The notes under the pieces were generated by a model, which saw only the letters and a list, made by a program, of their open reading frames with translations, made no database searches and was not told the DNA's origin. Below, one piece after another: positions 186-19,791 of a stretch of DNA of 64,000 bases. Position 1 is the first letter of the stretch. Each line of letters starts with the position of its first letter. A program made the translations under genes and the position numbers. This stretch comes from a virus. Its lineage: Duplodnaviria > Heunggongvirae > Uroviricota > Caudoviricetes. The stretch is from IMG/VR virus record IMGVR_UViG_3300029305_011675. One strand, written 5' to 3'.

Positions 186-218
186 AAAAAGGACATCGAT
201 ATCGATGTCCTTTTTATG
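186..218 (+). terminator. Rho-independent terminator
   Basis: aaaaaggacatcgatatcgatgtccttttta: 10-bp perfect stem followed by a T-run. Confidence 0.75.
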
Positions 219-468
219 TTTTCTACTACCCAATAGCACTTCCCAAAAATTCAAACATTTTTGCCTTTTATCCCTATAATATTATCTATCTTCCCACTTC
301 AAAACCCCACAAAAATTAAACTTATGCAATAGACACCATTAAATAACAAAAAACAAAGAAGTAGACGACGGTGAATACAAATCTCCACGAAAAGTTCGTA
401 GAGATTTTTCATTGACAAGAAAAAAATCACGTATAGTAAATATACTATATGTGAAAGGATGATTTCTT

Positions 469-1776
469 ATGAAACTAAATATTAAATCCCGTAAGGGTTT
501 TACTTTAATTGAATTACTCGTAGTTATTGGCATTCTCGCAGTTCTTGCCGCTATCGCAATTCCTTCAGTTGCAGGACTTATTGACAGAGCAAATGTATCT
601 GCTGATAAAACTAATAGCAACGAGATGACAAATGCACTCGAAAGATTTGCTTCGGAGTATGAACTCTACTGTCAGGACATTGCCTCTGGTACATTAGACC
701 CAGATAATTTAGACAGTGCACAGGGTAGAGTTAAAAATGTAATTGATGTGACAACTCGTGCTGGTATTGAAGGAATCGAGTTCGCTCAAAATGCAACAGT
801 TGCTGATGATGTGATTGCAATTTATAGAGACACCAAATATCCTATGAATGCTTACACTATGCAAAAAGTTGTAGAAAACTATACAAAAACTTCCAGTTCC
901 ACCTTTGAACCAAAGCAATCAGATGTGCACTATTGGTATTCACCAGATTGTGGTGTTGTTGTAGTTGCAGAACCGACAAAAACTGCTGCTGAATTAGATA
1001 AGTATGCTATCTCTGGTATGGATGCAAAAGGTAATGATATCACATCAGACAGTGTAAATGCACAGTGGATTGACCTTACACTTGGTGCTACGTTAAGTGG
1101 AGACACTTCTCTTGATATGTCCACCGTTGATTCAACTCTTGCCAATAACGACTGGACAACAATTCAAGCAGTAATTCGTGCAGGAAAAGTTACCGATGCA
1201 GGTTGGAAAACAGGGGATTTGACTCCAAGTTTTACAATCAACGGGAATACAAGACAAGCACGGATTGTTGACATTGATAGTGATAAAGTTACATTTATGC
1301 TTACATCAAACATTGGCAACCACAGAATGACTGCACCAAGTACAGATTATCCTTGGGGCGATAATATCAATGGTTATACAGATACAGAAATGAAGACATG
1401 GTTGGATGGAGAAGTATATAATAATCTCGATGCAAATTTAAGAGCAGTAATTAGTCCTACAACCATTACATGTGCCGATGGTGATAATAATTTGAATAGC
1501 TCAAAGTGTGTAACTTGTTATTTATTCTTACCTTCCATCAAAGAGGTTGGTTTTAATGACGACATGTCTGGTTGGTACGAGTATATAACTGAAATTGAAG
1601 CAGAAGGCGAAACATTTGATTGGTTTGCCGACGACGGTTATGTTGACGATTGGTTCTGGCTTCGTTCGCCTTATTCTCGCTGTTATGAGGATTTCTTCTG
1701 TTATGGTCGTGGCGATGAATACCATGTCAATGCATACGATAGTCGTCCTGTTTACCCTGCCTTCGTCATCAGTTAA
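469..1776 (+). CDS. Large type IV pilin / pseudopilin-like protein (prepilin-type N-terminal cleavage/methylation domain)
   Basis: N-terminus MKLNIKSRKG|FTLIELLVVIGILAVLAAIAIP is a class III signal peptide with the G-F-T-L-I-E cleavage motif. RBS aaagga sits 10 nt upstream. Paralog of 4521..5519. Confidence 0.75.
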   Translation: MKLNIKSRKGFTLIELLVVIGILAVLAAIAIPSVAGLIDRANVSADKTNSNEMTNALERFASEYELYCQDIASGTLDPDNLDSAQGRVKNVIDVTTRAGIEGIEFAQNATVADDVIAIYRDTKYPMNAYTMQKVVENYTKTSSSTFEPKQSDVHYWYSPDCGVVVVAEPTKTAAELDKYAISGMDAKGNDITSDSVNAQWIDLTLGATLSGDTSLDMSTVDSTLANNDWTTIQAVIRAGKVTDAGWKTGDLTPSFTINGNTRQARIVDIDSDKVTFMLTSNIGNHRMTAPSTDYPWGDNINGYTDTEMKTWLDGEVYNNLDANLRAVISPTTITCADGDNNLNSSKCVTCYLFLPSIKEVGFNDDMSGWYEYITEIEAEGETFDWFADDGYVDDWFWLRSPYSRCYEDFFCYGRGDEYHVNAYDSRPVYPAFVIS

Positions 1777-1789
1777 TCATATATAATCT

Positions 1790-1818
1790 GGGGAACGAAA
1801 GTTCCCCGATTTTTTTAT
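1790..1818 (+). terminator. Rho-independent terminator of the pilin-like gene
   Basis: ggggaacgaaagttcccc + gattttttta. Confidence 0.8.
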
Positions 1819-1835
1819 GCATGCTCGTGAAAAAT

Positions 1836-1935
1836 ATCACCTACCCACCCACCCCACCATCCAACCCCATTCCCATAACCCACTAAAATAATTCACATCC
1901 CCTCGCCTATTCCCATAACCCACTAAAATAGTTCA
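1836..1935 (-). repeat. G-rich (minus strand) intergenic repeat; member of a 4-locus family
   Basis: The reverse complement contains ttttagtgggttatgggaatggggttggatggtggggtgggtgggtagg. It is homologous to + strand 33190-33235, and the internal 25-bp unit attcccataacccactaaaata(a/g)ttcac is duplicated. Confidence 0.55.
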
Positions 1936-2107
1936 CCCACCAATCCCTTTGTTCACGACTCATAAAAAAGAAAACTATTAACTACATTCCATTAACCAGC
2001 CTTAAATATACTAATAACGACACAATATTAAATACCCAATACTTCCATAACCCCACAGAACACCCTATAACACATCCAATATATAACCAATAACCGAATA
2101 TCCCCAA

Positions 2108-2161
2108 TAAAAGAAAAACGGTCTTACCCGCCCTAAAAGGCAGATAAGACCGCTATTTTTA
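2108..2161 (-). terminator. Bidirectional rho-independent terminator (ends the minus-strand operon 4027->2168)
   Basis: cggtcttacccgccctaaaaggcagataagaccg hairpin, flanked by an A-run on the 5' side and ctattttta on the 3' side. Confidence 0.7.
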
Positions 2162-2167
2162 TATTCC

Positions 2168-2977
2168 TCACGTATCCGCTTCATGTTTTGTATTGTATCG
2201 CTCAAGATAATACATAGAGTCACGATACCCATAGAGAAAGTCTACTCCCAAAACTGTCTGATAAATACCGCAACTAAATAGGGGATGGCATTCCAAAATT
2301 GCAGTGCCCTTATCAGAAACCGCAACGTCCATAGTATAACTTCTTGGATAATCTTTCTGCATAGAATAGATTAAGTTTGCCTTTTGTATCAAATTAACAT
2401 CGGGAAAAACCGTTGCATCACCATCATAATAAGCAATAGCATATAACTCTCCAGCGATAAAGTAAACTCGATATTCAGAACGAATATTCAAAATATCAGA
2501 AACTTGATACAAATCATCATCCTCAATAGGTCTTTTTTGCGACAGTGCATCGGGTTCATTGTAAATAGCATCTATTCGACCAGTATAAGAAAATGTTTTT
2601 AAGGTAGAAACATTTTTTATAAAATATGCTTTGTCCTTTGGAATATCTTTGCCGTACATTATACTATATTTTCTTTTCAAAAACTCATCCGTCCGTAAGC
2701 ATTTGGGAATCTCTATTGGATTCATTTTCTCTATATTTTTGAAAATATTAAGATATGCAGTAACGAAATTGATAGTGCCGAGCGGAATAGCATCTTTATA
2801 TTCATTTGGAAATTCAGTAGATTTTTTCAATTGTTTATCACCGTTATAAAAATCTGCTAAACGCATTTCAGCATAGTCAAAATGAGAATATTCAAGAAGT
2901 TCCTTTAATATAGCATAATCAACCTGCATCAACTTCATATCGTCTTGCGCTTGTAATATAAAAAACATATCATTCAC
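2168..2977 (-). CDS. Hypothetical protein (possible ATP-grasp-like fold, unverified); GTG start
   Basis: 269-aa ORF of normal complexity. Last gene of a 3-gene minus-strand operon. No confident motif. Confidence 0.5.
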   Translation of the reverse strand: MNDMFFILQAQDDMKLMQVDYAILKELLEYSHFDYAEMRLADFYNGDKQLKKSTEFPNEYKDAIPLGTINFVTAYLNIFKNIEKMNPIEIPKCLRTDEFLKRKYSIMYGKDIPKDKAYFIKNVSTLKTFSYTGRIDAIYNEPDALSQKRPIEDDDLYQVSDILNIRSEYRVYFIAGELYAIAYYDGDATVFPDVNLIQKANLIYSMQKDYPRSYTMDVAVSDKGTAILECHPLFSCGIYQTVLGVDFLYGYRDSMYYLERYNTKHEADT

Positions 2978-4027: not shown

Positions 4028-4111
4028 ATTTAATACTCTCTTCTTTCTTATAGTGTATTATGGTTATGTAGTGAATTCTTTTACAGGATTGTATTGGGGG
4101 AGTGTGAGTAT

Positions 4112-4140
4112 ATTATACCATAAATAGTTGGCAATGTCAA
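4112..4140 (-). promoter_or_regulatory. Sigma-A promoter (minus strand): TTGACA-17-TGGTATAAT
   Basis: The reverse complement reads ttgacattgccaactatttatggtataat, with an ~85-nt leader to the ATG at 4027. Confidence 0.7.
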
Positions 4141-4199
4141 CATAAAAGTTTCGTTTTGGGAAGATAAAAGAAGTTTCTTTTTTAAGTGGTTTAAGTAAA

Positions 4200-4440
4200 A
4201 TAATTTTTCTTTTTCAAAGGATTTTGTGGAGAACAGTGTCTCTCCCCAAAAGGGTTTTATGGAGAACAGTGTTTCTTTTTTGAGGGGGTTTGGGGAAATA
4301 GTTTTTCTTCCCCAAAGGGGTTTATGGAGAACAGTGTTTCTTTTTAAGAAGTTTAAGGAGAATAATTCTTCTTTTTTTAAGGGGGTTGGGAAAGAGTTTT
4401 TTCTTTTTGAGGGGGTTTTGGGGAGAAGGGTGGGCGGAAA
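4200..4440. repeat. Degenerate ~55-60-bp tandem repeat array (about 4 units), G-rich
   Basis: ggagaacagtgt(c/t)tct recurs 3 times (a 4th variant is ggagaataattct). tttttgaggggg(t)ttgggga occurs twice, and ccccaaa(a)gggtttatggagaacagtg occurs twice. The array is intergenic, between the operon start and the pilin-2 promoter. Confidence 0.7.
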
Positions 4441-4520
4441 AATAATTATTTGTAAATATCTTTGACAAGAAAAAAAAATCATCTATGCTATGTTTAACAT
4501 AAATGAAAGGATGATTTTTT

Positions 4521-5519
4521 ATGAAAATTTTAACTTCCCGAAAAGGTTTTACACTTATCGAGTTACTTGTGGTAATCGGAATTCTTGCTGTGTTGGCGGC
4601 AATTGCTATTCCTTCCGTTGCTGGACTTATCGACAGAGCAAATGTATCTGCGGATAACACCAATGCCAGTGAAATGACGAATGCGATGGAAAGGTTTGTA
4701 AGCGAATACGAATTATATAAGCAGGATATCGCATCTGGTGCAATCAAAGATGGAGACGGTGATGGAGTTCCTGATAATATGGATGCCGCACAAGGCAGAG
4801 TATATAATGTTACCAAAGCAGTAACCCGTGCTGATATTGAAAAACTCGAAAGTTTGGCAGGTTTCAACGGCATTCGCATCGATATTGATAATAAGTATGC
4901 ACAAAACCATGAAACCGCAAAAGCAGTTATGCAGAATTATATGAAGACCAGTTCTTCCACTTTCGAACCAAAGCAAAGCGACATGACTTATTGGTACAAT
5001 ACTGTAACGGGTTATACACTTGTTGCAGAAAAGAATATCGACACTTCCACTTTATCTGATTTATTACCTTCCAATATCAATTATTCACATACAAAAACTT
5101 CTCTAAATGAATGGATTGATTTATCTTCGGATACTAAAATACCAAATATTTCAATTATAGAAAATTCCTATATTGGAAAAGAAAATGGACTTTACTATAC
5201 AAAATATGACATGGTGCTTGTAAAAGAGGAAGGCATAAATGTTGATTTTGACAAAATATATATTATATATCATAGCGAAAATCATGGAGCGCTCAATATC
5301 AATACCGCCGCATCAAAAATCTTATTAAAAGACAGAATTGATGCAGGAGATTTTGCTTCGTTACAGAATCCCGACAAAAAAGTTGTTAACTTCAGCATCA
5401 CATATAGCACATCAAATGAAAATATAAATAAATATTTTAGATTAGTTTATGAATATGAAGAAAATGGTCAAACAAGATATGCCTATACATCAACTGTTGT
5501 AACTCCAATCACCCAATAA
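4521..5519 (+). CDS. Type IV pilin / pseudopilin-like protein, paralog of 469..1776
   Basis: N-terminus MKILTSRKG|FTLIELLVVIGILAVLAAIAIPSVAGLIDRANVSAD... is nearly identical to the first pilin over ~60 aa and similar over ~170 aa (it ends KTSSSTFEPKQSD). The C-terminal half is unrelated. Confidence 0.75.
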   Translation: MKILTSRKGFTLIELLVVIGILAVLAAIAIPSVAGLIDRANVSADNTNASEMTNAMERFVSEYELYKQDIASGAIKDGDGDGVPDNMDAAQGRVYNVTKAVTRADIEKLESLAGFNGIRIDIDNKYAQNHETAKAVMQNYMKTSSSTFEPKQSDMTYWYNTVTGYTLVAEKNIDTSTLSDLLPSNINYSHTKTSLNEWIDLSSDTKIPNISIIENSYIGKENGLYYTKYDMVLVKEEGINVDFDKIYIIYHSENHGALNINTAASKILLKDRIDAGDFASLQNPDKKVVNFSITYSTSNENINKYFRLVYEYEENGQTRYAYTSTVVTPITQ

Positions 5520-5596
5520 AAATGCAAAAAACCAGTTGACAAACCAAATTGTTTATGATATAATAAACGAGAAATCTAAACAAGGAGGTTATACCA

Positions 5597-6043
5597 ATGA
5601 GCATTCAAGAAACTGCAAAGCAGAATATGTATGCCGCTATGAAGGCGCACGACAAGCAGAAGAAAGATGCCTATGCAATGCTTTACGACCAACTTAAGAA
5701 GAAAGAAATCGACCTCCGTCACCCACTTACGGACGACGAGGAGATTGCCGTAGTCACAAAGATGGTCAAGCAGTGCAAGGACAGCATTGATTCTGTGCCA
5801 GAAGGCAAAGGTGGAGAATTCATTGAGAAGGTAAAATTCGAAATGGAAATCTATTCACAATTCCTTCCAACTTTGATGACCGAAGATGAAATCGTCGTTG
5901 TCATCAAGGAAACGATGGCAGAGTGTGGCATCGAAACTCTTGATAACAAGTCTCGTGGTTTGCTTATGAAGAACCTTATGCCAAAGGTTAAGGGCAAAGC
6001 AGATGGCAAACTCGTAGCAGACACCGTTAACAAGATGATGTAA
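5597..6043 (+). CDS. yqeY: GatB/YqeY domain-containing protein
   Basis: 148 aa. The pattern MS..E.....AMKA.DK..........LKKKE....H.LTDDE...V..K.VKQ....D......G matches the YqeY family. RBS aaggagg is present. Confidence 0.7.
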   Translation: MSIQETAKQNMYAAMKAHDKQKKDAYAMLYDQLKKKEIDLRHPLTDDEEIAVVTKMVKQCKDSIDSVPEGKGGEFIEKVKFEMEIYSQFLPTLMTEDEIVVVIKETMAECGIETLDNKSRGLLMKNLMPKVKGKADGKLVADTVNKMM

Positions 6044-6044: not shown

Positions 6045-6135
6045 TGTAAAATAGAAACTTAAACCGAAACATAGAAACTTATTCTGAAACATAGGAAAGT
6101 TCTCTAAAAGTAGGTTTGAAACTTATTCCGAAACA
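6045..6135 (+). repeat. Tn7R-like end: four contiguous ~20-bp putative TnsB-binding repeats (consensus gaaactta-n4-gaaaca)
   Basis: Sites at 6053-6071, 6073-6091, 6093-6110 (degenerate) and 6117-6135, preceded by a terminal 8 bp tgtaaaat. Confidence 0.75.
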
Positions 6136-6164
6136 AATGTAAATAATCATTTAATCTAAAACAA

Positions 6165-6200
6165 AAAATCCCTCTCGTAATGAGAGGGATTTTATTTTTT
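6165..6200 (+). terminator. Rho-independent terminator just inside the transposon end
   Basis: atccctctcgtaatgagagggat + tttatttttt. Confidence 0.75.
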
Positions 6201-6443
6201 AATTATAAAAAACACATTCAATACTTGACTTTTTCAGAAAAAGTTTATATATTCTATATTATTGTTGAAAATTTTACACAAGGTTGGAGAAAGCACTCCG
6301 CACTTTAAAAGCAAATCTGTCATTCTTATTGTATCAAAAAAACATATAAATCAGTCAAAATTTATATTTTCCAGTATGCTTTTCTATAATATAAAACAAA
6401 TATGTGCAATAATTTATACAAAAATTAAGAAGGTGGTGAATCT

Positions 6444-6737
6444 GTGATGCAAATTAAATGTTTTATAAATGACAATTTTCGAACACTCTCTTATCTTTAT
6501 GATATTAAAGGTGAGGATAATCGTGCCCGTATCACACAACAAGAGGTGGCTGACGCTCTTGGAATTAGTCGCTCTACGCTAAACAAAATTATGAATGAAC
6601 TGAAAAAAGAAGGTTATGTCGAACAAGATGGTAACTATATGGGTCGCTATATTGTTACGAATGCAGCCATTTCAGTTATCGAGACATTTAGAAGTATTGA
6701 TAAAAACGATAGAGGAGGCACTTATGACAGAAATTAA
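6444..6737 (+). CDS. Small HTH transcriptional regulator
   Basis: 97 aa. ITQQEVADALGISRSTLNKIMNELKKEGYV is a classic helix-turn-helix. RBS aaggtgg. Overlaps the start of the next gene by 14 nt. Confidence 0.65.
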   Translation: MMQIKCFINDNFRTLSYLYDIKGEDNRARITQQEVADALGISRSTLNKIMNELKKEGYVEQDGNYMGRYIVTNAAISVIETFRSIDKNDRGGTYDRN

Positions 6738-9384
6738 CATAAACAAACTGAAAAATTTCAAGACGATTACTTGTGATGAATACTTGGAAGTATATAAAGA
6801 AGAGATTATACCTGACAGCGAAAAAATATTTGTTAGAGACTTTTTGTTTGCGATTTTAGGTGAAGACAAAATGCCTATGGTAATTCCACAATATCCCTTT
6901 ATTGATAGTGAGGGAAAATCAAGAAGAATAGATTTCGGTATTATCACACCTGAAGGACATAAAATTGCATTCGAAATCAATGGAGAAACCTACCATAAAG
7001 AAGGCATTATACCATCTGCTCAATTTGACGATAATTTGTTTAGGCAAAATGAAATTTTATTTCACGGTTGGATTTTAAGAAGGTATTCCTATGCACAACT
7101 ATTAGACCCATCTTGGAGAAGCCGTGTTGCGAGCGAAATACGACTAACCCTAAAAGTTTATGCACCAGAACTACTTCCACCAACCAAAATTGAACCAAAT
7201 GCAATTCAAGAAGAAGTTCTGGTTGCATTAAAAAATAAACGTGCATTAGGTTGGGGAAAAGGATTAGTTATAATGCCAACAGGTACAGGTAAAACATATT
7301 TATCGGCATTAGACGCTCTTCAATACAATAACAAAAATCCAGATGCAAAAATATTGTTTGTGGTTCATAGATTAGAAATTCTATCTCAATCCAAGGAAGC
7401 ATATAGAGATGTTTGGGGAGATGTAAAAACGGGTTTTTTGGGTGGTGGTACATCCGAGAATTTGCACGATTGCAAAATTCTCTTTGCATCCAAGGACTCC
7501 CTTTGTAAAGACGAAACCTTGCGACAATTTAACCCAAAATCATTCAATTATATAGTTGTTGATGAAGTTCATCATGGTGAAAGTAAAACATATAAAAAAA
7601 TTATAAATTATTTTACACCAGAATTTTTGCTTGGTATAACCGCAACACCTGATAGGAAAGATAAAAAAGATATATTAGAATTGTTTGATTATCATAAGGT
7701 AAGTGAGTATACCCTAAATGATGCCATTGAAAAAGGTTTTTTGGTAAGTTATGAATATCATGGACTAAAAGATAATATTGACTATACAAATATTCGTTGG
7801 AACGGTGTAAAATACGATAGTAAAGATTTGGAGAATCATTTAATCATTAACGAGAGAAATAAAATGATTCTTAATAAATATATTGAACTGTGCAATGGCA
7901 ACAAAACCATTGGTTTTTGCGTATCAATTAAACATGCTCAAAGAATGGCGGACTTTTTCAATTCTCACGGAATTTCTGCTGTTGCTATTGTTTCTTCAGT
8001 AGAAAATAATAAAGAGTTGATTAAGAAATTTAGAAATAATGAGTTCGCTGTTGCTTTTACGGTAGATATGTTTAATGAAGGTGTTGATATTCCGAATGTG
8101 CAGTCGCTATTATTTTTAAGACCCACCGAATCAAAAACTGTATTCCTACAACAAATTGGTCGTGGTCTTCGCCTATCTTCAAATAAAGATAAAATAGTTA
8201 TTCTCGACTTTATTGGTAATTACAAACGTGCTAATTTTGTTCGTCAGTATTTAGCAAAAAATGTCAAAGAAAAAACAAAGCAAGGGTCAAATGCATTTGA
8301 AAAATTCGAATATGAATACAATCCCAAATGTGTTGTCAAATTTGATGACGAGGTTCAGCAAATTCTCGATTATCAGGATGAACAAAATCACAATATTAAC
8401 GAAGATGACTTAATAGATGCATACTTCGACTTAAAAACTAAAATTGGTCGAAAACCAACAATGGAAGATATTAATACCGATGGTAAATATAAAACCAGCA
8501 AATATGCTTCGGTGTTTGGTAGTTGGTTTCAATTCTTAACAAAAATCGGAGAGATAACAGAAAATGGATATCATTATCCACAAGGATTACATATCGGTCA
8601 TATTATGTACATTTTAAAATCTCTGTACGAAAAAGATACTTCTGGATATATGAATGAAAAATTCATTCGTATGAGAGGCGACTTTAGTGATGACAGTAAT
8701 TTAGCCACATTTCAAAGACAAACAAAATATAAATTACAAGGTATGATGGGAATGGGATTAATAACTGATGACAGAAAAAATGGTTTAGATGTTAAGATGC
8801 CAGAATTAACGGAATTAGGCAAACAATTATTTACTATTCTAAAACCCATCATTGATTGTGCTGATTTGTCATTTAAACTCAAATCAAAGGATTACAGTTG
8901 GGAAATGAATGTTGGAGTTTCTATTTTTGTAGAAAACATTAAAACATATCTCAATGATAATGACGAAGCGAGAAAGCAATATCTTAACATTATATTTAAT
9001 TTTGATGCAATCAGACAACTTTTGTGCTTCTTGTATTTTGATAATCGAAAAATGAATATCACAAAATCTGATTGCTATCAATTTTTCATCGAAAGTCTAT
9101 CTGTTAAAAAATATTGTGAAACACAAGGAATTGAGGTTCCGACGTCAGAAGGTGCCAAGCATCGTGTCCCATTTCTTGTTACTTTATTAGAAACGGCTGA
9201 TATCGTCAAAACCGACAGAAGCAACATTTTCATAAACAAAATATTAATCACAGATTTCATGTTTGAAAATCATATTGATGCTTTTACAAAATTATCAGAA
9301 GGAAATCACACTGAAGAGATTAAAGAAACATTTGGCACAGACTTTTTATCTCACATTGAACATATTAAATTGGAGGTACTATAA
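6724..9384 (+). CDS. DUF559-type PD-(D/E)xK nuclease fused to an SF2 DEAD/DEAH helicase; restriction-subunit-like (HsdR-like domain order)
   Basis: The internal ATG has RBS agaggagg. The N-terminal RIDFGIITPEGHKIAFEINGETYH...NEILFHGWILRRY matches DUF559/Vsr-like nucleases. Helicase motif I is MPTGTGKT, motif II VVDEVHH and motif III GITATP. The C-terminal ~400 aa is unassigned. Confidence 0.7.
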   Translation: MTEININKLKNFKTITCDEYLEVYKEEIIPDSEKIFVRDFLFAILGEDKMPMVIPQYPFIDSEGKSRRIDFGIITPEGHKIAFEINGETYHKEGIIPSAQFDDNLFRQNEILFHGWILRRYSYAQLLDPSWRSRVASEIRLTLKVYAPELLPPTKIEPNAIQEEVLVALKNKRALGWGKGLVIMPTGTGKTYLSALDALQYNNKNPDAKILFVVHRLEILSQSKEAYRDVWGDVKTGFLGGGTSENLHDCKILFASKDSLCKDETLRQFNPKSFNYIVVDEVHHGESKTYKKIINYFTPEFLLGITATPDRKDKKDILELFDYHKVSEYTLNDAIEKGFLVSYEYHGLKDNIDYTNIRWNGVKYDSKDLENHLIINERNKMILNKYIELCNGNKTIGFCVSIKHAQRMADFFNSHGISAVAIVSSVENNKELIKKFRNNEFAVAFTVDMFNEGVDIPNVQSLLFLRPTESKTVFLQQIGRGLRLSSNKDKIVILDFIGNYKRANFVRQYLAKNVKEKTKQGSNAFEKFEYEYNPKCVVKFDDEVQQILDYQDEQNHNINEDDLIDAYFDLKTKIGRKPTMEDINTDGKYKTSKYASVFGSWFQFLTKIGEITENGYHYPQGLHIGHIMYILKSLYEKDTSGYMNEKFIRMRGDFSDDSNLATFQRQTKYKLQGMMGMGLITDDRKNGLDVKMPELTELGKQLFTILKPIIDCADLSFKLKSKDYSWEMNVGVSIFVENIKTYLNDNDEARKQYLNIIFNFDAIRQLLCFLYFDNRKMNITKSDCYQFFIESLSVKKYCETQGIEVPTSEGAKHRVPFLVTLLETADIVKTDRSNIFINKILITDFMFENHIDAFTKLSEGNHTEEIKETFGTDFLSHIEHIKLEVL

Positions 9385-9386
9385 AT

Positions 9387-10337
9387 ATGGCTATACATAA
9401 TAAATCTCACAACAATTCTGCACTTATGTCTTTAAATAAAATGAATAAGGACAACATCAAGCATAAGACATCAAAGGACTTTGAGATGCCCGAAAAAAGC
9501 ATTCAACTATTAATGATTCAAGATTGCTTGACTGCATTAAAAGAACTACCAGATAAATCAATCCAATTAATTTGCATTGACCCTCCTTATAATTTGGATT
9601 TGGCAGATTGGGATACATATGATAATTATATGAGTTGGTGTGCTGAATGGTTAAATGAATGTTGGAGAGTTTTGAAAGACGAAGGCAGTTTAGTTGTTTT
9701 TGGTGGCACTCAATTTAGAGATGAAAGAAGCGGCGATTTAACTGAAATTATCTATCATTGTCGCCACAATACTAAATGGAAGTTAGTCAACACAATTGTT
9801 TGGTATTACAAAAATGGAATGTCTGCCCATAGATATTTTGCAAACCGTCATGAGGAAATTATTTGGTTCGTAAAAACCGATAAATATTACTTTGATTTAG
9901 ATTCTGTTAGAGTAAAATATTCAGAAGAAGATTTAAAAAATGCCTTAAAAGATAAGAGACTGAATCCTGAAAATGTTAAAAAAGGCAAAAATCCAACAAA
10001 TGTATGGGAAATAGGTAGATTAAATGGTAATTCGTTAGAAAGAGTTGGACATCCAACCCAAAAACCTTTAGCAGTCATCAGGAGATTAGTTAAAGCATTA
10101 TCATATCCTGGGTCAACCGTCTTGGATTTCTTTGCAGGTAGCGGAACAACAGGTAGAGTGTGTATTGAAGAAGGTAGACACTGTATTCTTATAGATAAAG
10201 GCGAAACAACTACCGATTATTTTAAAAAACATATTGAAAAAATGGAAAAAACAACACTTGCAAAACCCCACCAGTCTGTTGAAACAATTGAAGAATTTTT
10301 CAATTGTGTCGAAGAAGAAACAAATAAAAACAATTAA
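9387..10337 (+). CDS. Beta-class N6-adenine/N4-cytosine DNA methyltransferase
   Basis: Motif IV LICIDPPYN lies upstream of motif I VLDFFAGSGTTG. RBS ggagg. Starts 2 nt after the upstream stop. Confidence 0.8.
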   Translation: MAIHNKSHNNSALMSLNKMNKDNIKHKTSKDFEMPEKSIQLLMIQDCLTALKELPDKSIQLICIDPPYNLDLADWDTYDNYMSWCAEWLNECWRVLKDEGSLVVFGGTQFRDERSGDLTEIIYHCRHNTKWKLVNTIVWYYKNGMSAHRYFANRHEEIIWFVKTDKYYFDLDSVRVKYSEEDLKNALKDKRLNPENVKKGKNPTNVWEIGRLNGNSLERVGHPTQKPLAVIRRLVKALSYPGSTVLDFFAGSGTTGRVCIEEGRHCILIDKGETTTDYFKKHIEKMEKTTLAKPHQSVETIEEFFNCVEEETNKNN

Positions 10338-10661
10338 CACCTTAACTTATTACTGCGAATTTTAAGTTAAATACAAACAAAAATATGGAGTCCGCAATAT
10401 CGGACTCTAAACCAAATATAAAAAAGAAGCCCGCTACTGCGAATAGCGGACTTCCGTATAACAACACTAAAATTAACATTTGTATGACTACCAATCTAAC
10501 AAAAGTGTTTTTTAATGCTGCTTTCTTATTATAGCATTTTCTTATCTAAATGTCAACTCATTTTTGTTAGAAATTCAGTATTCTTATACTTTTGTTAATT
10601 TTGACTAATCTCGTTCCTGCTCGGAACACAAAAATATTAAAATATGATAGGAGTAGATATT

Positions 10662-12812
10662 ATGGATAATATAATGCTAACCGTTGGTAATGTTATTATA
10701 GATGAGCATAGTGGCAAACAATATCGAGTTGTTGCAGTTGTAAACAATGATATTACTTTATGCGAGATGAATACTACGAAGTTTTTACTCTCGTTAATGA
10801 ATAAACAAACCTTGTTCGCACTTGTGGCAACAGGTGAATTAATAATCAAAGTCGAACCACCCATCGTTTTCAACAAGGATGACTTACCAGAGGGTTTTCA
10901 GAAAAAATTCACAATAAGACAACAGATAATGAATGAGGTCCTCAAGGAATATGGACCATCTTATATTGAACTAAACGGTAAAAAACGAGGCAGGACAGTC
11001 AAGGATATAATGAGTAAATATAACTTGGCAAGATGTTCTTTCTGGAGAATATGTACTCAATATTTTCAAAGTGGTCTTCAAGATTATTCGTTAGTTGATT
11101 CGAGATATTTTGGTGCAAATACTGGCAAGACATATAATTATGAGACCAAAACTGGTCGCCCACCAGAATACTCTATGGCATCGGGAATTATTATCACCGA
11201 TGAAATTATCAAGCATTTTGAAGAAGCATTGAAAGATTATAAGTCTGGAAGACACAAATCCATCAAGGATGCTTTTGACAAAATGAATTTGTTGCATTTT
11301 ACAAAAACAGAAATAATTAACGGTCAACCCAGTATTGTTTTATTGCCCATATCAGAAAGACCAACACTCGACCAATTTAGATACTATTGCAACAAACATC
11401 TTACAAACCAAGAAAAAGACTTAATAAAAACATCTGCACTCGAACAAAAGAATAACAAAAGACTTCTTGTAAGCGATTCACTCAATGGTGTAAATGGACC
11501 TGGTGATTTGGTAGAAATCGATGCTTGCGAAGCAGATATATCGTTGGTTTCTGTTATTGACTCATCAAAAACTATCGGCAGACCGATAGTGTACTTTATG
11601 GTTGATGTATACTCTCGCATTATCTTGGCAGTGTCTGTTGCTTTTGATAATAACTCTATGCTTGGTTTATCAAACTTATTTCTAAACCTTGCAGATGATA
11701 AACAGAAGTATTGTGAGAGATACGGAATTAGTTATGAAAACAAAGATATTTGGCCATCAAACATTATTCCCAATCGTGTTCGTGTTGACAAAGGTGCTGA
11801 ATTTAGAAGCAAAGAGTTTGAGAGAATCTGCAATGAACTTGGTATTGAAAGAAATATCGTATTGCCAGGGTGTGGTTCTCTCAAAGGTATTGTAGAGCAG
11901 TCATTTAGACAATTACATCTCAAACAAAATCATCATCTTGAAAATCATGGTCTCATTACCCAAAGACACGATTCCAAACATCATCAAGAGGCGATGTTGA
12001 ATATTGAAGAATATACTAAAATGGTTATTGGTTTTGTTCTAACTCACAACCAACAATGCTTAACAAATTTCCCACTCACAAAAGATATGATTTTGAAGAA
12101 GGTTCAACCCATTCCTGCTTTGTTGTGGAAATATGGCATAAACAACGGTTTCACACCGAGACCAATCCCTTCGCTGCAACAATATCTATTCAATCTTATG
12201 ACACCTATCAATGCCAAAGTAAGCAGAAAAGGTATCAGTCATAAGGAATTATATTATCTAAACACAGAAGATAAAAAACTTGCTCGTGAGATGTTTGATG
12301 CTGGCAACAAAAGAAAAGATTTTGAAGCAAGAATGGATATGAGAGATGTTGGTTCGATTTATTATATCAGAGATAATAAGTTAATGGTCGCCAGACTTAA
12401 CCCGCTAATTCAAGGGAATGCGGAATATGCTGGTATGACGATGAAGGAATACGAAGATTTCCGCAAGGGTAAAAAAGAACTTCTCGCAGCAGGCAAGGTT
12501 AATAACGAAGAATTGTCTGCATTCAATTATGCGATGAACAATGCTATTGTTGAAGAAGCGACAAAACCAATGTTACCTTCTGCAAAAGATATGAGACCTG
12601 CTCGTGAGATTGAAAAGCAGGCAAAATCTAAATCTAATAAAATCAGCAAAAGATTAGAACAACCTAAACTCGAAGCACCAAAAACGGAAGATGTTTTGGT
12701 AGAAGAGTTTATTGAAAAAATAACCGAATGTCCTCCTGCAGAGGAAGTCCCAGTAAAGAAAAATAAGTTAAACACATATAGCAATTGGGACGAAGCATTG
12801 GAAGATTGGTAA
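10662..12812 (+). CDS. tnsB: Tn7 TnsB-like / Mu-type DDE transposase
   Basis: About 717 aa. The core matches TnsB/TniA integrases, e.g. IVYFMVDVYSRIILAVSVAFDNNS and RVRVDKGAEFRS. RBS taggag. Confidence 0.75.
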   Translation: MDNIMLTVGNVIIDEHSGKQYRVVAVVNNDITLCEMNTTKFLLSLMNKQTLFALVATGELIIKVEPPIVFNKDDLPEGFQKKFTIRQQIMNEVLKEYGPSYIELNGKKRGRTVKDIMSKYNLARCSFWRICTQYFQSGLQDYSLVDSRYFGANTGKTYNYETKTGRPPEYSMASGIIITDEIIKHFEEALKDYKSGRHKSIKDAFDKMNLLHFTKTEIINGQPSIVLLPISERPTLDQFRYYCNKHLTNQEKDLIKTSALEQKNNKRLLVSDSLNGVNGPGDLVEIDACEADISLVSVIDSSKTIGRPIVYFMVDVYSRIILAVSVAFDNNSMLGLSNLFLNLADDKQKYCERYGISYENKDIWPSNIIPNRVRVDKGAEFRSKEFERICNELGIERNIVLPGCGSLKGIVEQSFRQLHLKQNHHLENHGLITQRHDSKHHQEAMLNIEEYTKMVIGFVLTHNQQCLTNFPLTKDMILKKVQPIPALLWKYGINNGFTPRPIPSLQQYLFNLMTPINAKVSRKGISHKELYYLNTEDKKLAREMFDAGNKRKDFEARMDMRDVGSIYYIRDNKLMVARLNPLIQGNAEYAGMTMKEYEDFRKGKKELLAAGKVNNEELSAFNYAMNNAIVEEATKPMLPSAKDMRPAREIEKQAKSKSNKISKRLEQPKLEAPKTEDVLVEEFIEKITECPPAEEVPVKKNKLNTYSNWDEALEDW

Positions 12813-12825
12813 GGAGGTATTCGAT

Positions 12826-14433
12826 ATGGATATAAAATATAATTATTACGAATGTGAAAAATTCGAGACACAATATGAAGATTATGATTTTGAAGAAAAC
12901 AAAATCGTAAATGCCAGATATGTTAAGGCACTTGTTGAATGTGATATCGGTAACCCATACATAGAGGCATTGCCACATCCGAGACACGAAGATGATGTAA
13001 GAGATGCATACACAAAACATCTTTTAACATACGACTACGATAAGGTCAAAAATATGACCAAATTAGAAAAGATGTTGCAAGTTAGCACTTTAAGGCAGAT
13101 AAGATTTCCTCTTACATTCCACAAGAATTTGGAATTTTCATTCTATAATGCTTTAATTACATCTTATAGGTCAAGGAAAATCAAACCCATAAACGATAAA
13201 CCAATTGAATATATTTCAAACGATATAGAGACAGAAACCAACTGTGTTTTATATGGTAATTCTGCCGATTCTACAAATGCAGGATTCTCTCTCATAGGTT
13301 ATTCTGGTTGTGGCAAAAGTTCCGCAATCCAAACATTGCTTTCGCATTATCCACAAACCATTATACATCGTGTAGATGAGTTTACACAATATGTCCAGAT
13401 TGTTTATTTGGTTGTAAACTGTGTACCCAATAGTAATTTCTCTGCATTATATGAAGGCATTGGCGATGCTGTTGATAAGGCGCTCGGCAATACTCAACCT
13501 GTTTATGCAAAAGAGATTGCAAAAACAACCACACTTGGCAGAAAAATGGAGAAGGTTCGTGAGTTAATAGAAAGATTTGGTATCGGAATGATTATCTTTG
13601 ATGAGATACAACTCATAGATTTTGATAGAACAAAAGAAAGTTCTTTTGAATCTTTAATGACTTTATCTAACAGAACAAAAGTCGCTATCGCTGTTGTAGG
13701 TACAGAAGATGCCAGAGACAAAATGTTTAAGGAATTAAGAACCACAAGAAGAATTGGAACAGTAATCAACGGTAATATGTATTGTGAGAACAAAATGTTT
13801 TTTACATTCCTTGTCACTCAACTATTTAACTATCAATGGTTTGATGAACCAATTGATGTAACAGAGGAACTTGTAGATGCCCTCTACGATGTCACCAAAG
13901 GCATTGTGGACCAACTTATAGGAATATACTCCTGTATGCATTACGACTATTTAGAGCGAAAGAAACGCCCCGTAATCGATGCGAAATATGTCTATGATAT
14001 AGCACAAAGATATTACCCAGGAATTCAGAATGTTCTTGCGGATTTGGAATCAATTGAAGCGGCAAGAAAACTTATGGGCATCAGACAAGATGCAGAAGTT
14101 AGAGTCGCTTCTATCATTGATAATGCAAAGCAGGAAAAAGAAGCAGAAGACTTGTTACAAAAACAAAATAAAGCAGTCGATAAAATGCTAATGTTGAAAA
14201 ATATTGTAGCAAATATCACTGCCCTATATGATGAATATTCTCTTTCTCAAATTGAAAAGGCATTTAATTTAGTTATAAAACAGACCAAAGACAATCCTAA
14301 ATCCGAAAGAGAAATGAGTCGTTTGGTTCTTGATAAACTTACTCACAGAAGAAATACCAAATCTGCAGATAAAAAGAAAAAGTCGAGTATCCCAGAAATG
14401 GATACAACGACTATGAGAGATTTTATTGGATAA
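12826..14433 (+). CDS. tnsC: TnsC-like AAA+ ATPase (transposition regulator)
   Basis: Walker A is GYSGCGKSS and Walker B is GMIIFDEIQ. It sits immediately downstream of tnsB, with RBS aaggagg. Confidence 0.75.
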   Translation: MDIKYNYYECEKFETQYEDYDFEENKIVNARYVKALVECDIGNPYIEALPHPRHEDDVRDAYTKHLLTYDYDKVKNMTKLEKMLQVSTLRQIRFPLTFHKNLEFSFYNALITSYRSRKIKPINDKPIEYISNDIETETNCVLYGNSADSTNAGFSLIGYSGCGKSSAIQTLLSHYPQTIIHRVDEFTQYVQIVYLVVNCVPNSNFSALYEGIGDAVDKALGNTQPVYAKEIAKTTTLGRKMEKVRELIERFGIGMIIFDEIQLIDFDRTKESSFESLMTLSNRTKVAIAVVGTEDARDKMFKELRTTRRIGTVINGNMYCENKMFFTFLVTQLFNYQWFDEPIDVTEELVDALYDVTKGIVDQLIGIYSCMHYDYLERKKRPVIDAKYVYDIAQRYYPGIQNVLADLESIEAARKLMGIRQDAEVRVASIIDNAKQEKEAEDLLQKQNKAVDKMLMLKNIVANITALYDEYSLSQIEKAFNLVIKQTKDNPKSEREMSRLVLDKLTHRRNTKSADKKKKSSIPEMDTTTMRDFIG

Positions 14434-14448
14434 TAGGAGGAATAAAGT

Positions 14449-16575: not shown

Positions 16576-16658
16576 TTAAGAGTTTGGCGATAAAAAGAAA
16601 CTCGTTATTTTGATAAAAAAACAGGGGTGCCTTTTTTAATTGCTTTAATTCAATTCTA

Positions 16659-16687
16659 TTGACAGAATGGCATATTTATGTTATAAT
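16659..16687 (+). promoter_or_regulatory. Sigma-A promoter TTGACA-17-TGTTATAAT for the cargo ORFs
   Basis: ttgacagaatggcatatttatgttataat, followed by a ~120-nt leader that contains a 15-bp long-range helix (16716-16731 pairing with 16778-16792). Confidence 0.6.
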
Positions 16688-16809
16688 AAAATTAGAATTC
16701 CGCAAGTTTTAACTACTTATTCTTTTGAAGATTAACCTGAAGTAGAGGTTATAACTGGATTTCCACACACACGAATCTCTTCAAAAAATAAGAAACGAGG
16801 TTAAAAAAT

Positions 16810-17247
16810 ATGTTATTTGAATATGATTATTGCGGAATTATGTTTAGAAATCCTTTTGCATATGATAATAAACAAAATTATCATTGCGCGACAATGCTGT
16901 TAAATGCATTGTCATCGTATATTACCACATATCGTCCAAAGGAAGAACACACAAGCGAAAGTATTTACAAATTGCTTGTCGCCAATTCAGAACAAAGACA
17001 CATTGGTGATTCTCCTTTTGCTATCAATGGAAAAGGTAGTCTTTTAGATGCAATTTTTGAAGAACTCCGAATGAAAGTTCCCTGTTGTATCGAATTAGAA
17101 TATTATAAAATATTTAAAGCATTTCCATTGAAACAACAACTTTCAGTTATTGCCACCTTGATGGCAGAAAATTTTGGTTTAAGAGAAAAGGCAATCGAGA
17201 ATTTTCTTAAAAAATCAAAAGACCCGTTTGTAACAAACAAAGAATAA
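16810..17247 (+). CDS. Hypothetical protein (transposon cargo)
   Basis: 145 aa. RBS gaaacgagg. No recognisable motif. Confidence 0.5.
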   Translation: MLFEYDYCGIMFRNPFAYDNKQNYHCATMLLNALSSYITTYRPKEEHTSESIYKLLVANSEQRHIGDSPFAINGKGSLLDAIFEELRMKVPCCIELEYYKIFKAFPLKQQLSVIATLMAENFGLREKAIENFLKKSKDPFVTNKE

Positions 17248-17308
17248 AATTAATGGCATACGATTGGTTGTGTGTGCAATCGTATGCTATTTTTTAGGAG
17301 AATTAGTT

Positions 17309-18241
17309 ATGAGAGAAAATTTAAAACAACTTATAGGCGAAGAAATTAGTGGTGTAGCAAAGTGTGTCAGAAATGGACATCGTTGCCTATTGAGAGATAT
17401 CGTAGTAGACGACTCTTGTTCTTTTGACCCAGACTTATATTTAGCAATAGAACAACACTTGTGGACAGATTCTAATGTTATTGAGAAAAACAATATAAAA
17501 CGATATTCTTATTTTCGTTTCGCTGGCTCTGTATATGAGTATAAAAGAGAAAACGACACAACAGATTATTCTATCGAATTAAAAGAAGTTGAACCGATTG
17601 ATACTTTTAAGTATTTAAAAAGCAGAATTCAGCAATGCTATTGTAGACATGTGTGTTTATTTTTTGAACACTGCTATTATAACTGCTGTGCACCACAATC
17701 AGAAAAAGATAATTTTGTTATTCCTGTATTAGAAAAGATGTTTTTAGAAGAAGCAGTCAACGATTTTGCAGAAGAATATGAATTTTCACCAAAGGATTTT
17801 CTAAAAGAAATCAGGAACAAAACTCTATTTAAAATTAGTGATGCACATATTTATCTTGGTATGAATAAGGCAGATTTTATCAAAAGATATAAGTCCAACA
17901 TTATTGAGGGCAATGAGTTTGGATATAAAATGAAACCTATTGAAGTAGATAAAATCTTCTTAACTCCAGTTATTCATTTTATGAAAAACGGGATGTGCGA
18001 TGCAATTGCATTTGAGACTAATCAAGATAATTTAAATACTGCAATTCAATATATAAATAAAAAGTATAACACAAATGTTACACTTTTTAATCACAAAGAA
18101 TTGATTGACTTATTCAAAGCAGAGATGGAATTTGGAGATATTATTTTTGGTTATTCAAAAGCACAAGAAAATCATCCTGCTTCCATTGTTATGAGTTTGT
18201 CAACACCAATATCGACATATTTCTCGGTTGGCTTACAATAA
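17309..18241 (+). CDS. Hypothetical protein (transposon cargo)
   Basis: The internal ATG has RBS taggag. 310 aa, Cys-containing, no recognisable motif. Confidence 0.5.
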   Translation: MRENLKQLIGEEISGVAKCVRNGHRCLLRDIVVDDSCSFDPDLYLAIEQHLWTDSNVIEKNNIKRYSYFRFAGSVYEYKRENDTTDYSIELKEVEPIDTFKYLKSRIQQCYCRHVCLFFEHCYYNCCAPQSEKDNFVIPVLEKMFLEEAVNDFAEEYEFSPKDFLKEIRNKTLFKISDAHIYLGMNKADFIKRYKSNIIEGNEFGYKMKPIEVDKIFLTPVIHFMKNGMCDAIAFETNQDNLNTAIQYINKKYNTNVTLFNHKELIDLFKAEMEFGDIIFGYSKAQENHPASIVMSLSTPISTYFSVGLQ

Positions 18242-18303
18242 AATATTTTTATATAAACGGAAACTTATAAAAATAAAAAACAATTTATAACACTATTAAG
18301 TTT

Positions 18304-18439: not shown

Positions 18440-18480
18440 GTAATTGTTAAATGACAATTTAATTTGAAACTAAAATTAAG

Positions 18481-19675: not shown

Positions 19676-19731
19676 CGACCAAAGCAATAAAAAAGTAAGC
19701 GCATTATGTGCTTACTTTTTTGCTTTGTATG

Positions 19732-19760: not shown

Positions 19761-19791
19761 AAGATAAAGAACTAATAGGAGGCATATATAA

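Follow-up and report, generated by a model that had tools for sequence, protein, structure and literature searches.

What are the G-rich sequences that recur between the genes of this phage, and what might they do? The window, as we call the whole stretch of 64,000 nt analysed here, covers 64 kb of a ~680-kb genome and was compared with ~130 kb of relatives, whose contigs are denoted below by L numbers. The genome looks megaphage-like, with contigs of up to 679 kb and 18 tRNAs in one relative. A preliminary description had noted G-rich tracts at four loci (1836-1935, near 29800 and 31050, and 33190-33240), regarded them as a family, and offered a REP/BOX-like repeat, a short RNA gene or insulator-like G-quadruplex (G4) DNA as possible identities. 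The sequences that it quoted are all present, and the reverse complement of 1836-1935 reads as given there. All four of its loci are real members, but the list omits the largest one, a tandem array at 4174-4439, as well as a core at 29142-29170 and the larger C-depleted spacers.

The four loci share a unit of 33-38 nt that is G+T-rich and C-poor, with the consensus CTTTTTTAGRGGGTTATGGRGAGAAGGGTGGRTGG. The unit is asymmetric and runs from a T-run through AGRGGGTTATGG and a short purine-rich linker to GGGTGGRTGG, which is near the motif GGTTATGG-n-GGATGG-n-GGTGGGTGGG that had been put forward for a genome-wide scan. Alignment of the cores of nine copies reveals a two-block pattern common to all, in which the G-blocks are kept, the linker between them varies in length, and linker and flanks vary in sequence. 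Some units stand alone, others are paired or repeated in tandem with a 33-nt period, and paralogous copies share just 63-76% identity. Their sequences identify the G-rich loci as members of a single non-coding DNA repeat family that is specific to this lineage.

The relationship is not evident from every pair of copies. The reverse complement of 1836-1935 had been called clearly homologous to 33190-33235, but a Smith-Waterman comparison of this pair alone gives z = 1.9, and 20 of 300 dinucleotide shuffles equal its score. The better-supported pairs are 1820-2120 with 29794-29912 (z 6.7) and with 31045-31206 (z 4.7), similarities that span 130-175 nt. Homology of all four loci follows from intermediate copies in related contigs and from a profile search. 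A profile built from 7 copies recovered 10 further copies in a search space of 172 kb (the 64-kb window plus ~108 kb of related contigs), compared with a mean of 0.7 in locally shuffled sets (n = 20), and its second iteration gave 14 matches at E < 0.1 and none in shuffles. It detects five copies at four sites within the 64 kb and another 14 matches in the ~108 kb of relatives. The cores at 29808-29839 and 31046-31072 are weaker and were assigned through alignment and G4Hunter. A profile made from the 33-nt array units alone retrieved nothing beyond the array itself, which is linked to the other loci via its last unit and copies in relatives.

Word counts in the window point the same way, with one borderline case. 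There are 17 occurrences of GGGTTATGG with at most one mismatch against 7.5 expected, a number that none of 100 shuffles reaches, and four of the five exact copies fall within repeat elements. TGGGTGG occurs 9 times (2.9 expected), with 4 of the 9 in the four loci, whereas GGTGGGTGGG with at most one mismatch is borderline, being present 3 times against 0.59 expected with 5 of 100 shuffles reaching 3. As a negative control we used 876 kb of unrelated bacterial loci, chosen as chance matches from a 16-nt pattern scan of genome contigs, and no profile match in these extends to the second G-block. The scan itself, of 596 Gb, returned single matches in unrelated taxa only, which we regard as chance because the pattern is too short for a collection of this size. 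An exact 20-mer was not found in IMG/VR, the flanking proteins have no relatives there, and megablast against phage and plasmid collections gave no matches. Strain-level copies of the loci are 100% identical and are therefore uninformative.

Table 1. Repeat elements of the window and the signals and genes that surround them.
Feature	Coordinates	Strand	Remarks
Element A	1829-2116	-	290-nt spacer, C-depleted on the minus strand, flanked by terminators of two convergent genes
Element A, full units	1857-1890 and 1905-1931	-	Profile E 0.015 and 0.023
Element A, additional parts	1836-1860; ~2045-2053	-	G-run; partial unit
Element C core, TTTTTTATTGGGTTATGGATGGAAGGTGGGTGGG	33196-33229	+	Within C-free spacer 33110-33257; profile E 0.0095; orthologues in L142 and L144
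Element E core, TTGATGGGTCGTGAAGGTGGGATGGGTGGAAT	29808-29839	-	Within spacer 29795-29925; orthologue in L144
Element F core, CAGGAATAAGGTTGGGTGGAGGGTGAA	31046-31072	-	Within spacer 31004-31232; alignment and G4Hunter
Fifth-locus core, TGTTTTAGGGGATTTTGAAGGGCGGTGGG	29142-29170	-	Within spacer 29112-29250; profile E 0.08
Tandem array	4174-4439	+	TRF period 33, 7.8 copies; profile E 7.7e-05; last unit CTTTTTGAGGGGGTTTTGGGGAGAAGGGTGGGCGGAA
Z0, possible weak member	216-350	-	Plus strand C-rich and G-poor; reverse complement contains GTGGGGTTTTGAAGTGGGAAGATAG
Intrinsic terminator of gene 469-1776	1789-1808	+	Left bound of element A
Intrinsic terminator of gene 2168-2968	2117-2154	-	17-bp stem; right bound of element A
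Bidirectional terminator hairpin beside element C	33258-33281	-	With 33306-33330, ends minus-strand gene 33342-33641
Further terminators	31262-31233; 29283-29252; 28555-28532		
Sigma-70 promoter of cation-efflux gene	33072-33100	-	12/12 + TG; element C ~96 nt upstream, inverted
Consensus promoter	29708-29736	-	12/12 + TG; downstream of element E
Promoter of GIY-YIG gene	30865-30893	-	12/12 + TG; downstream of element F
Consensus promoter	29017-29045	-	12/12 + TG; downstream of the 29142-29170 core
Variable segment, 1289 nt	29759-31047	-	Promoter, GIY-YIG gene 30060-30812, terminator and element E

Every unit lies within a spacer of 100-300 nt that is almost without C on one strand and that spans from the intrinsic terminator of one small transcription unit to the consensus sigma-70 promoter of the next (Table 1). 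Ranked by skew, the top six long intergenic regions are those that bear the elements, the weak candidate at 180-468 included, and the C content of the elements is 3-9%. In nine copies the G strand is the sense strand and a sigma-70-like promoter follows 22-152 nt downstream; similarity among the promoters reaches up to 58 nt. As the preliminary description had it, orientation relative to neighbouring genes differs, and copies occur both ways round with respect to transcription. On its reverse complement, element A contains ATTCCCATAACCCACTAAAATARTTCAC twice, as a direct repeat of 28 nt (1867-1894 and 1909-1936; period 42), and its G4Hunter score reaches -2.32. Between the core of element E and the -35 hexamer of its downstream promoter (29736) there are 71 nt. 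The array is situated between divergent promoters, and 22 nt separate its end from the -35 hexamer of the promoter that serves a pilin-like gene (4521-5519). Z0 has a terminator (186-215) on one side and the promoter of the pilin-like gene 469-1776 on the other, and is not detected by the profile search.

The element-bearing region is an accessory, fast-changing part of the megaphage-like genome. Copies adjoin the pilin-like genes at 469-1776 and 4521-5519 and others in L133, L137, L138 and L141, and the remainder flank unrelated genes; the type IV pilin-like proteins are a family in which the N-terminus is constant and the C-terminus varies. Gene calling placed an ORF at 4081-4482 on the minus strand, overlapping the array; it is probably spurious. 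One strand of these spacers is almost without G and therefore has few stop codons, so that gene callers place spurious ORFs there; further examples are an ORF of L144 (7174-7380) and the extended N-terminus of L141 344-1258, and annotators should be aware that such near-G-less strands attract spurious calls.

Several other identities for the units were considered and rejected. Boxes resembling TTATCCACA with at most one mismatch, which might have indicated a DnaA-box origin, number 31 against 23.5 expected and do not cluster, and a single one-mismatch box at 4225-4233 is the only one within elements. T-run spacings have no consistent period, as helical phasing of T-tracts in curved DNA would have. 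A reading of the C strand, TAACCCTC...TAAAA, as a T3 RNA polymerase promoter lacks the G start, arrays of such promoters are implausible, and no single-subunit polymerase was seen. Sites for PyrR-, CsrA- or TRAP-like RNA-binding proteins were dismissed as weak.

The suggestion that the G-tracts are capable of G-quadruplex formation holds for some copies. G4Hunter reports 19 regions of the window scoring at least 1.2. Annotated intergenic DNA, which makes up 11.6% of bases, contains 12 of them, every one inside a repeat element. By the canonical definition (four or more tracts of at least three Gs, loops of 1-7 nt), a four-tract motif is present in 3 of 15 elements, namely 4411-4434, the sole canonical motif in the window, and those of L137 and L138. 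If loops of up to 12 nt are allowed, motifs also appear at 1852-1881, where a 9-nt loop is required, and in L141, L140 and L134. A four-tract motif was not found at 33196-33229, 29808-29839, 31046-31072 or 29142-29170, nor in L133 or L131; at none of the copies near 29800, 31050 and 33200 does the number of G3 tracts reach four. In two comparisons of orthologues four-tract potential is lost, in L133 relative to 4403-4439 and in the window's 29142-29170 relative to L142. A literature search on G-quadruplexes in huge phages found nothing relevant. For insulator-like G4 DNA, the position between terminator and promoter fits, but the G4 part fits only partly, four-tract potential being confined to some copies and lost in orthologues.

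Comparisons with relatives reveal both conservation of cores and junctions next to them. L142 and L144 retain the cores at 33196-33229 and 29142-29170 as islands amid poorly conserved flanks, next to a protein that is only 56% identical in those relatives; in the comparison of the window with L144, conservation of the element E core does not exceed that of its flanks. L138 and L144 share a 33-nt core at 94% identity, upstream of a pilin-like gene in L138 and at the position of element C in L144; it is inverted and without flanking homology, so that the same core is present at unrelated loci. Unit number differs as well, with ~8 units at 4174-4439 against 2-3 in L133 and an identical promoter-proximal part.

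The evidence on junctions comes from two events. The close relatives L142 and L143 have 63 nt in place of the 1289-nt GIY-YIG segment; one junction coincides with the 3' edge of the F core, and the other precedes the next -35 hexamer by ~10 nt. In the other event a 99-aa ORFan of the window stands where L142 has an unrelated 108-aa ORFan, and homology to L142 picks up again precisely at the C core (33228) on one side and beside the promoter at 33787 on the other. Heterology starts in both at the 3' end of the core's G strand (n = 2). The idea that the GIY-YIG cassette had split an A-like element into E and F proved partly right only, as the resident element in L142 is F-like and L144 has E without the nuclease. 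A conserved A-like element beside the ATP-grasp gene is absent from the relatives, in which synteny is not conserved.

We tentatively favour the explanation that the repeats are DNA-level cassette-boundary sequences, probably patches of shared homology or otherwise recombination-prone DNA and perhaps insulators upstream of promoters, with a mechanism that we infer from the comparisons above. Cores and repeated promoters together would mark the boundaries of cassettes, the cores being short shared G/T-rich patches, prone to recombination, at which cassettes may have been inserted, lost or swapped in exchanges with co-infecting relatives. The cores could thereby cause or guide recombination, and a secondary role as a barrier upstream of promoters (through a G-rich non-template strand, a protein site or a G-quadruplex) is conceivable. 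As a caveat on a boundary role, the junction events number only two. Viable indels must fall between genes, so that some coincidence of junctions with whatever landmarks intergenic DNA contains is to be expected, and since the other junction is at a promoter in both events, promoters alone might suffice. Three further observations tell against a boundary role: a patch of 33 nt is short if homologous recombination is to be efficient, such a patch leaves the extreme C depletion of the whole spacer unexplained, and the E core does not exceed its flanks in conservation.

An alternative that we consider rather less probable is a regulatory or insulating element upstream of promoters, whose core would be bound by a protein of phage or host origin, or would adopt a G-quadruplex or R-loop structure on the non-template strand, and so tune an early promoter or block read-through. 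The sense orientation and downstream promoter of the nine copies mentioned above fit such a role, as does an A/T-rich, UP element-like gap between core and promoter, and the gap to the -35 hexamer is 22-23 nt in three copies (window 4403-4439, L133 and L138) and 35-37 nt in L137 and L131. The cores are conservation islands apart from the promoter, and the intergenic G4Hunter regions are confined to the elements. However, window 4403-4439 and L133 are orthologous and the fixed spacing therefore comes from few independent cases; other copies are 71-152 nt from a promoter, 33196-33229 is inverted, 1857-1931 has no promoter at all, and copies are present in 5' UTRs in either orientation (L131 6865-6897 and L141 1163-1197). 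Four-tract G4 potential is missing from many copies and lost in orthologues, and a variable linker between conserved blocks is unusual for a protein-binding site. Slightly less probable again is that the family is neutral debris, a C-less 33-nt unit expanded by slippage, copied along with promoter and terminator cassettes and now decaying without function, its strand bias inherited. The existence of a tandem array whose unit number differs among relatives, the low identity of paralogues, the presence of both orientations, the behaviour of the E core and a C content that by our own estimate matches drift from a C-less ancestor would all be accounted for. Neutral decay is harder to reconcile with conservation islands at two orthologous sites beside so diverged a protein, with a nearly identical core at unrelated loci of different genomes without flanking homology, and with the retention of two G-blocks amid varying linker and flanks.

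The remaining alternatives have little to recommend them. A rut site consists of unstructured RNA, rich in C and poor in G, that extends for at least 70-80 nt in the sense direction downstream of a gene, and the transcribed C-rich strand might act in this way to stop read-through or antisense transcription by Rho-dependent termination. That strand is long, G-poor and almost structure-free at 1820-2116 (-5.9 kcal/mol over 297 nt; 100 C versus 13 G), and it is sense right after an intrinsic terminator in three cases (1829-2116, 33110-33257 and 216-350). It is antisense to the flanking genes at 29808-29839, 31046-31072, 29142-29170 and 4174-4439 and in most of the relatives' copies, and conservation is in the specific G-block motif and not in general C-richness; we consider termination zones of this type improbable. 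The elements are most likely not RNA genes, and small RNA genes on the G-rich strand, for instance 33130-33289 ending at the terminator, are more improbable still. The C-free stretch 33128-33234 is indeed followed by a hairpin and T-run on the plus strand, and the G-rich strand of L131 6865-6897 is within a 5' UTR. Yet Rfam gives no matches at gathering thresholds in the whole window and none at E <= 1 in 1-2400, and in 28400-33900 a single sub-threshold match to rliD (18 bits against a gathering score of 50 bits) inside a coding region. In a scan for promoters of sigma-70 type only, none reads the G strand at 1836-1935 or 33190-33240, and no element has a promoter and terminator pair on the same strand. 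Fold z-scores against shuffles are +1.08 (the G strand of 1820-2116), 0.01 and -1.73, the last of which 11 of 200 shuffles match. The terminator reported after the 33190 copy (33259-33289) is real, but it is bidirectional and more plausibly ends the converging gene 33342-33641, the G strand of copies 1857-1931 has no terminator, and a tandem array and mixed orientations are unlike a gene; the proposed short RNA gene finds no support. We give almost no credence to the copies being transposase-binding arrays at the ends of the Tn7-like transposon encoded at 10644-16575. Copies 1857-1931 and 33196-33229 are mutually inverted and have the rve transposase, TniB and TniQ genes between them, but the transposon's own ends (~6045 and ~18460) are much closer in, with GAAACTTATTCYGAAACA repeats at 6051-6147 that have inverted matches at 18345-18377, within end repeats at ~6051-6147 and 18305-18460, and G-rich units are found both inside and outside that interval in either orientation.

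Among known systems, REP/BIME and pneumococcal BOX sequences are dispersed intergenic repeats of bacteria, imperfect palindromes that fold into stable stem-loops. Our repeat is similarly short, dispersed, intergenic and lineage-specific, occurs in both orientations and is modular with a variable number of internal units, as in boxB, so that the suggested REP/BOX likeness is apt in these respects. Unlike a REP or BOX unit, ours is not a palindrome, and shuffled sequences fold as well as either strand; the replicon that carries it is phage-like, and no RAYT-type (IS200/IS605-like) transposase was present among ~40 window proteins scanned. The PeSL (promoter-early stem-loop) cassettes of T4-type phages combine a repeated strong sigma-70-like promoter with a stem-loop (Arbiol et al. 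2010, PMC2839356; PMC4122927). In those phages they provide the sites at which co-infecting relatives gain, lose or exchange gene cassettes, and the boundary role favoured above is proposed by analogy with them. In both systems, large phage genomes have variable regions whose small accessory genes are separated by short non-coding modules that recur; the genes are flanked by strong early promoters (sigma-70-like) and by stem-loop terminators, and where close relatives differ by an indel or replacement, repeats bound the difference (the two events here). In contrast to PeSLs, the repeat described here is a separate G/T-rich, C-depleted block between promoter and stem-loop, its core either precedes the -35 hexamer by 22-152 nt or has another position, and it forms tandem arrays and takes both orientations; recombination is inferred from two junctions.

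The known Chi sites are 5-8 nt, and a short asymmetric G/T-rich motif with heterology at the 3' end of the core's G strand in both events recalls them, but our unit is much longer and its orientation mixed, and the polarity comes from two events and could be chance. At the pilE gene of Neisseria, a G4 with a cis-acting sRNA (gar) starts pilin antigenic variation (PMC3547852). By analogy the G-rich cores could be dedicated recombination initiators, G-quadruplex or Chi-like polar hotspots that shuffle accessory cassettes and especially diversify the pilin-like family, as a phage counterpart of the pilE G4; we think this unlikely. The start of heterology at the G-strand 3' end, a homing-endonuclease cassette adjoining one core and arrays directly upstream of pilin-like genes are suggestive of it. 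The likeness to pilE extends to a G-rich tract whose loops are of 1 nt (GGGTGGG), a position upstream of type IV pilin-like genes, and recombination as the proposed outcome. The differences are that window copies are without a predicted promoter from which transcription of the C strand would begin within the G-tract, that many copies are unrelated to pilin-like genes and many have fewer than four G3 tracts, and that silent cassettes were not identified. Only at L131 6865-6897 is the G strand the non-template strand downstream of a promoter, and the gene there is not pilin-like.

If the copies are neutral debris, the family would merit a minor annotation note only. Giant phages have large blocks of accessory genes that change fast, and how these are rearranged is poorly understood outside the T4-type phages; a ~35-nt boundary repeat in an uncultivated megaphage lineage would give a concrete handle on cassette rearrangement. 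With such a repeat, the limits of modules could be mapped in metagenomic assemblies, and it could be asked whether G-rich DNA guides recombination or insulates early promoters.

The preliminary description placed G-rich sequences at four intergenic loci (1836-1935, 29795-29835, 31040-31080 and 33190-33240), and all four are present as quoted. The first forms the left end of a 290-nt spacer (1829-2116) flanked by the intrinsic terminators of the convergent genes 469-1776(+) and 2168-2968(-); its plus strand is C-rich and nearly devoid of G (100 C versus 13 G), and it includes a 28-nt direct repeat (1867-1894 and 1909-1936). The cores at the other loci (E, 29808-29839; F, 31046-31072; C, 33196-33229) also lie within spacers (100-250 nt) depleted in C or G. 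Ranking all window intergenic regions of ≥70 nt by strand skew places six element-bearing ones first (GC skew -0.61 to +0.34), a weak candidate at 180-468 among them; the remainder are mostly nearer zero. Two members had not been listed: a core at 29142-29170, and a tandem array at 4174-4439 with a 33-nt period and ~8 units (TRF), which occupies the gap between divergent promoters and differs in unit number from its orthologue in the related contig L133. A 133-aa ORF, 4081-4482(-), is called on the C-rich strand of the array, but it runs through both promoters, is of low complexity, lacks a ribosome-binding site and is probably spurious. The same is likely of L144 7174-7380(-), L133 4925-5155(-) and the N-terminal part of L141 344-1258(-), which lie on the G-poor strand of elements, where stop codons are few; 4081-4482 and the L144 ORF are metagenome gene calls, and those of L141 and L133 come from an ORF scan.

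In the window, GGGTTATGG (≤1 mismatch) occurs 17 times against 7.5 expected, a count reached by none of 100 shuffles, and TGGGTGG nine times against 2.9; GGTGGGTGGG (≤1 mismatch) is borderline (3 versus 0.59 expected, with 5 of 100 shuffles reaching 3). The pair previously stressed as homologous, the reverse complement of 1836-1935 and 33190-33235, is not significant by itself (z = 1.9); the alignments of 1820-2120 score higher, at z 6.7 against 29794-29912 and z 4.7 against 31045-31206, and span 130-175 nt. Cores from the window and related contigs align as a single two-block unit, CTTTTTTAGRGGGTTATGG - linker - GAAGGGTGGRTGG. A profile built from seven cores finds 10 additional copies in 172 kb, where locally shuffled sets (n=20) average 0.7, and the last unit of the array is among its best matches; its second iteration gives 14 matches at E < 0.1, with none in shuffles. 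Within 876 kb of unrelated bacterial loci, every one of them picked for carrying the first-block 16-mer, no profile match reaches the second block. The copies in relatives are decisive for a family beyond chance, and the core alignment and profile copies bear out the suggestion of a dispersed repeat. It is a lineage-specific non-coding DNA repeat family, and neither Rfam nor the literature searched yielded a counterpart.

The proposed capacity for G-quadruplex (G4) formation is predicted for part of the family. G4Hunter (≥1.2) reports 19 window regions, of which 12 are in annotated intergenic DNA, all inside elements, and four more are within the array beneath ORF 4081-4482; the array also has the only canonical G4 motif of the window. 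Only three of 15 elements combine four G3 tracts with loops no longer than 7 nt, and eight do so when loops may reach 12 nt; the potential can vanish in orthologous copies. G4 formation by some copies is possible, but it cannot be a requirement common to all. The option of a short RNA gene is not supported, as the elements have no Rfam match, suitable promoter or folding beyond shuffles (for the 297 nt of the C-rich strand of 1820-2116 the folding energy is a mere -5.9 kcal/mol). The terminator noted after 33235 is real, but works in both directions and more plausibly serves the converging gene. A DnaA-box scan rejected a DnaA-box origin. Transposon ends were also rejected, since the Tn7-like or Tn5053-like transposon at 6045-18460 (tnsB/tniB/tniQ, 10644-16575) has its own inverted GAAACTTATTCYGAAACA end repeats (6051-6147 and 18305-18460). 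It is inserted directly after yqeY (5597-6043), and no TnsA was seen in it.

Coordinates of annotated genes and promoters in the window
Feature	Coordinates	Remark
DEAD/HNH helicase	6616-9384	Transposon cargo
Methyltransferase	9387-10337	Transposon cargo
rve transposase	10644-12812	Transposon
TniB	12826-14433	Transposon
TniQ with HA domain	14449-16575	Transposon
GIY-YIG homing-endonuclease gene	30060-30812	Free-standing; own consensus promoter
NAD synthetase	38317-39081	NAD-related set found in large phages
Nicotinamide phosphoribosyltransferase	39141-41015	NAD-related set found in large phages
Ribose-phosphate pyrophosphokinase	43962-44822	NAD-related set found in large phages
Strong-promoter family	4112-4147, 5535-5566, 19731-19771, 22020-22068, 23759-23802, 29004-29061, 30865-30900, 33072-33100	

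The window is part of a very large replicon; contigs as long as 678,911 bp encode proteins identical to its own. It encodes NAD-salvage genes typical of large phages, most of its ORFs have no Pfam match, and its promoters and ribosome-binding sites are Firmicute-like in appearance. The window contains neither a capsid nor a terminase gene, so that a megaphage source is likely but not proven. The 64 kb include no tRNA genes; an 18-tRNA array is present in the relative L127 (7897-11524), whose GyrB is 83% identical. In L121 (123-2579, upstream of the window), L127 (1464-4363) and L129 (10001-12872), gyrB is divided among three ORFs, the gaps between them measuring 220 and 278 nt; in L127 a GIY-YIG gene interrupts it within the gap. 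This arrangement hints at self-splicing introns, which may or may not carry homing endonucleases. A more distant relative with 30% GC has an iteron-like array in an 860-nt intergenic gap (L132 11560-11960), where AGTAAAGACTATTCT-type units recur every ~40 nt.

Strong, near-identical promoters (GGTTGACATTG-N-TGGTATAATAA) recur on both strands across the window with similarity up to 58 nt, and the block at 27.8-33.6 kb is a run of small minus-strand units, each with a 12/12 consensus promoter and a terminator. Among 19 copies surveyed for position and orientation, in nine the G strand is the sense strand and a sigma-70-like promoter follows 22-152 nt downstream, the distance from core to -35 hexamer being 22-23 nt in three of these. 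Two lie within 5' UTRs in opposite orientations, the C core is inverted relative to its neighboring promoter, and no promoter accompanies those at 1857-1931. Orientation thus shows a bias without being fixed, which favors either action at the DNA level or the absence of any role. An insulator or protein-binding site upstream of promoters, one of the two main rivals, is less likely than the boundary role given below. Inverted repeats between G-rich spacers and promoters (29750-29780, 29096-29110 and 371-416; e.g. TGATACAAAGTAGTATCAGTTTGTATCA) could be candidate operators; L142 has a different hairpin at the position of the first. Some elements neighbor a type IV pilin-like multigene family, which suggests an analogy with the Neisseria pilE G4 (PMC3547852), but they fail a promoter-geometry test and the reading is unlikely. 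Members of this gene family (469-1776, 4521-5519, L121 3341-4711 and in L133-L141; prepilin motif KGFTLIE) share a nearly identical N-terminal ~170 aa and a conserved promoter and 5' UTR (TTGACAAGAAAAAAAAATCA...AAAGGATGATTTT), and their C-terminal domains (DUF6273, Hint, others) are not related to one another.

The C core and that at 29142-29170 persist at the orthologous positions of L142 (DNA ~90% identical) and L144, where the neighboring protein is 56% identical; both are conservation islands, with poorly conserved DNA between them and highly conserved promoters. L144 has the E core as well, though conserved there no better than its flanks. Neutral repeat debris, the other main rival, is slightly less likely than the insulator. 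L138 and L144 share a 33-nt core at 94% identity, inverted and in unrelated loci with non-homologous flanks. Two strain differences start at cores. The GIY-YIG gene is absent from L142 and L143, the window having 31047-29759 (1289 nt) in place of 63 nt of L142, and a neighboring protein is 99% identical in the relative without it; the left junction lies where the F core ends on its 3' side, and the right one ~10 nt ahead of the following promoter's -35 hexamer. In L142 an unrelated 108-aa ORFan (4545-4871) takes the place of the 99-aa ORFan 33342-33641; the two proteins show no detectable similarity, yet their coding sequences begin with 11 identical nt, and homology returns at 33228 (the C core edge) and beside the promoter at 33787. 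Such junctions at repeats have been described for the promoter-early stem-loop (PeSL) cassettes of T4-type phages (PMC2839356), and the same pattern is seen here from two events only. The repeat family delimits accessory gene cassettes, and by analogy with PeSLs its most likely role, tentatively, would be that of a boundary or recombination patch.
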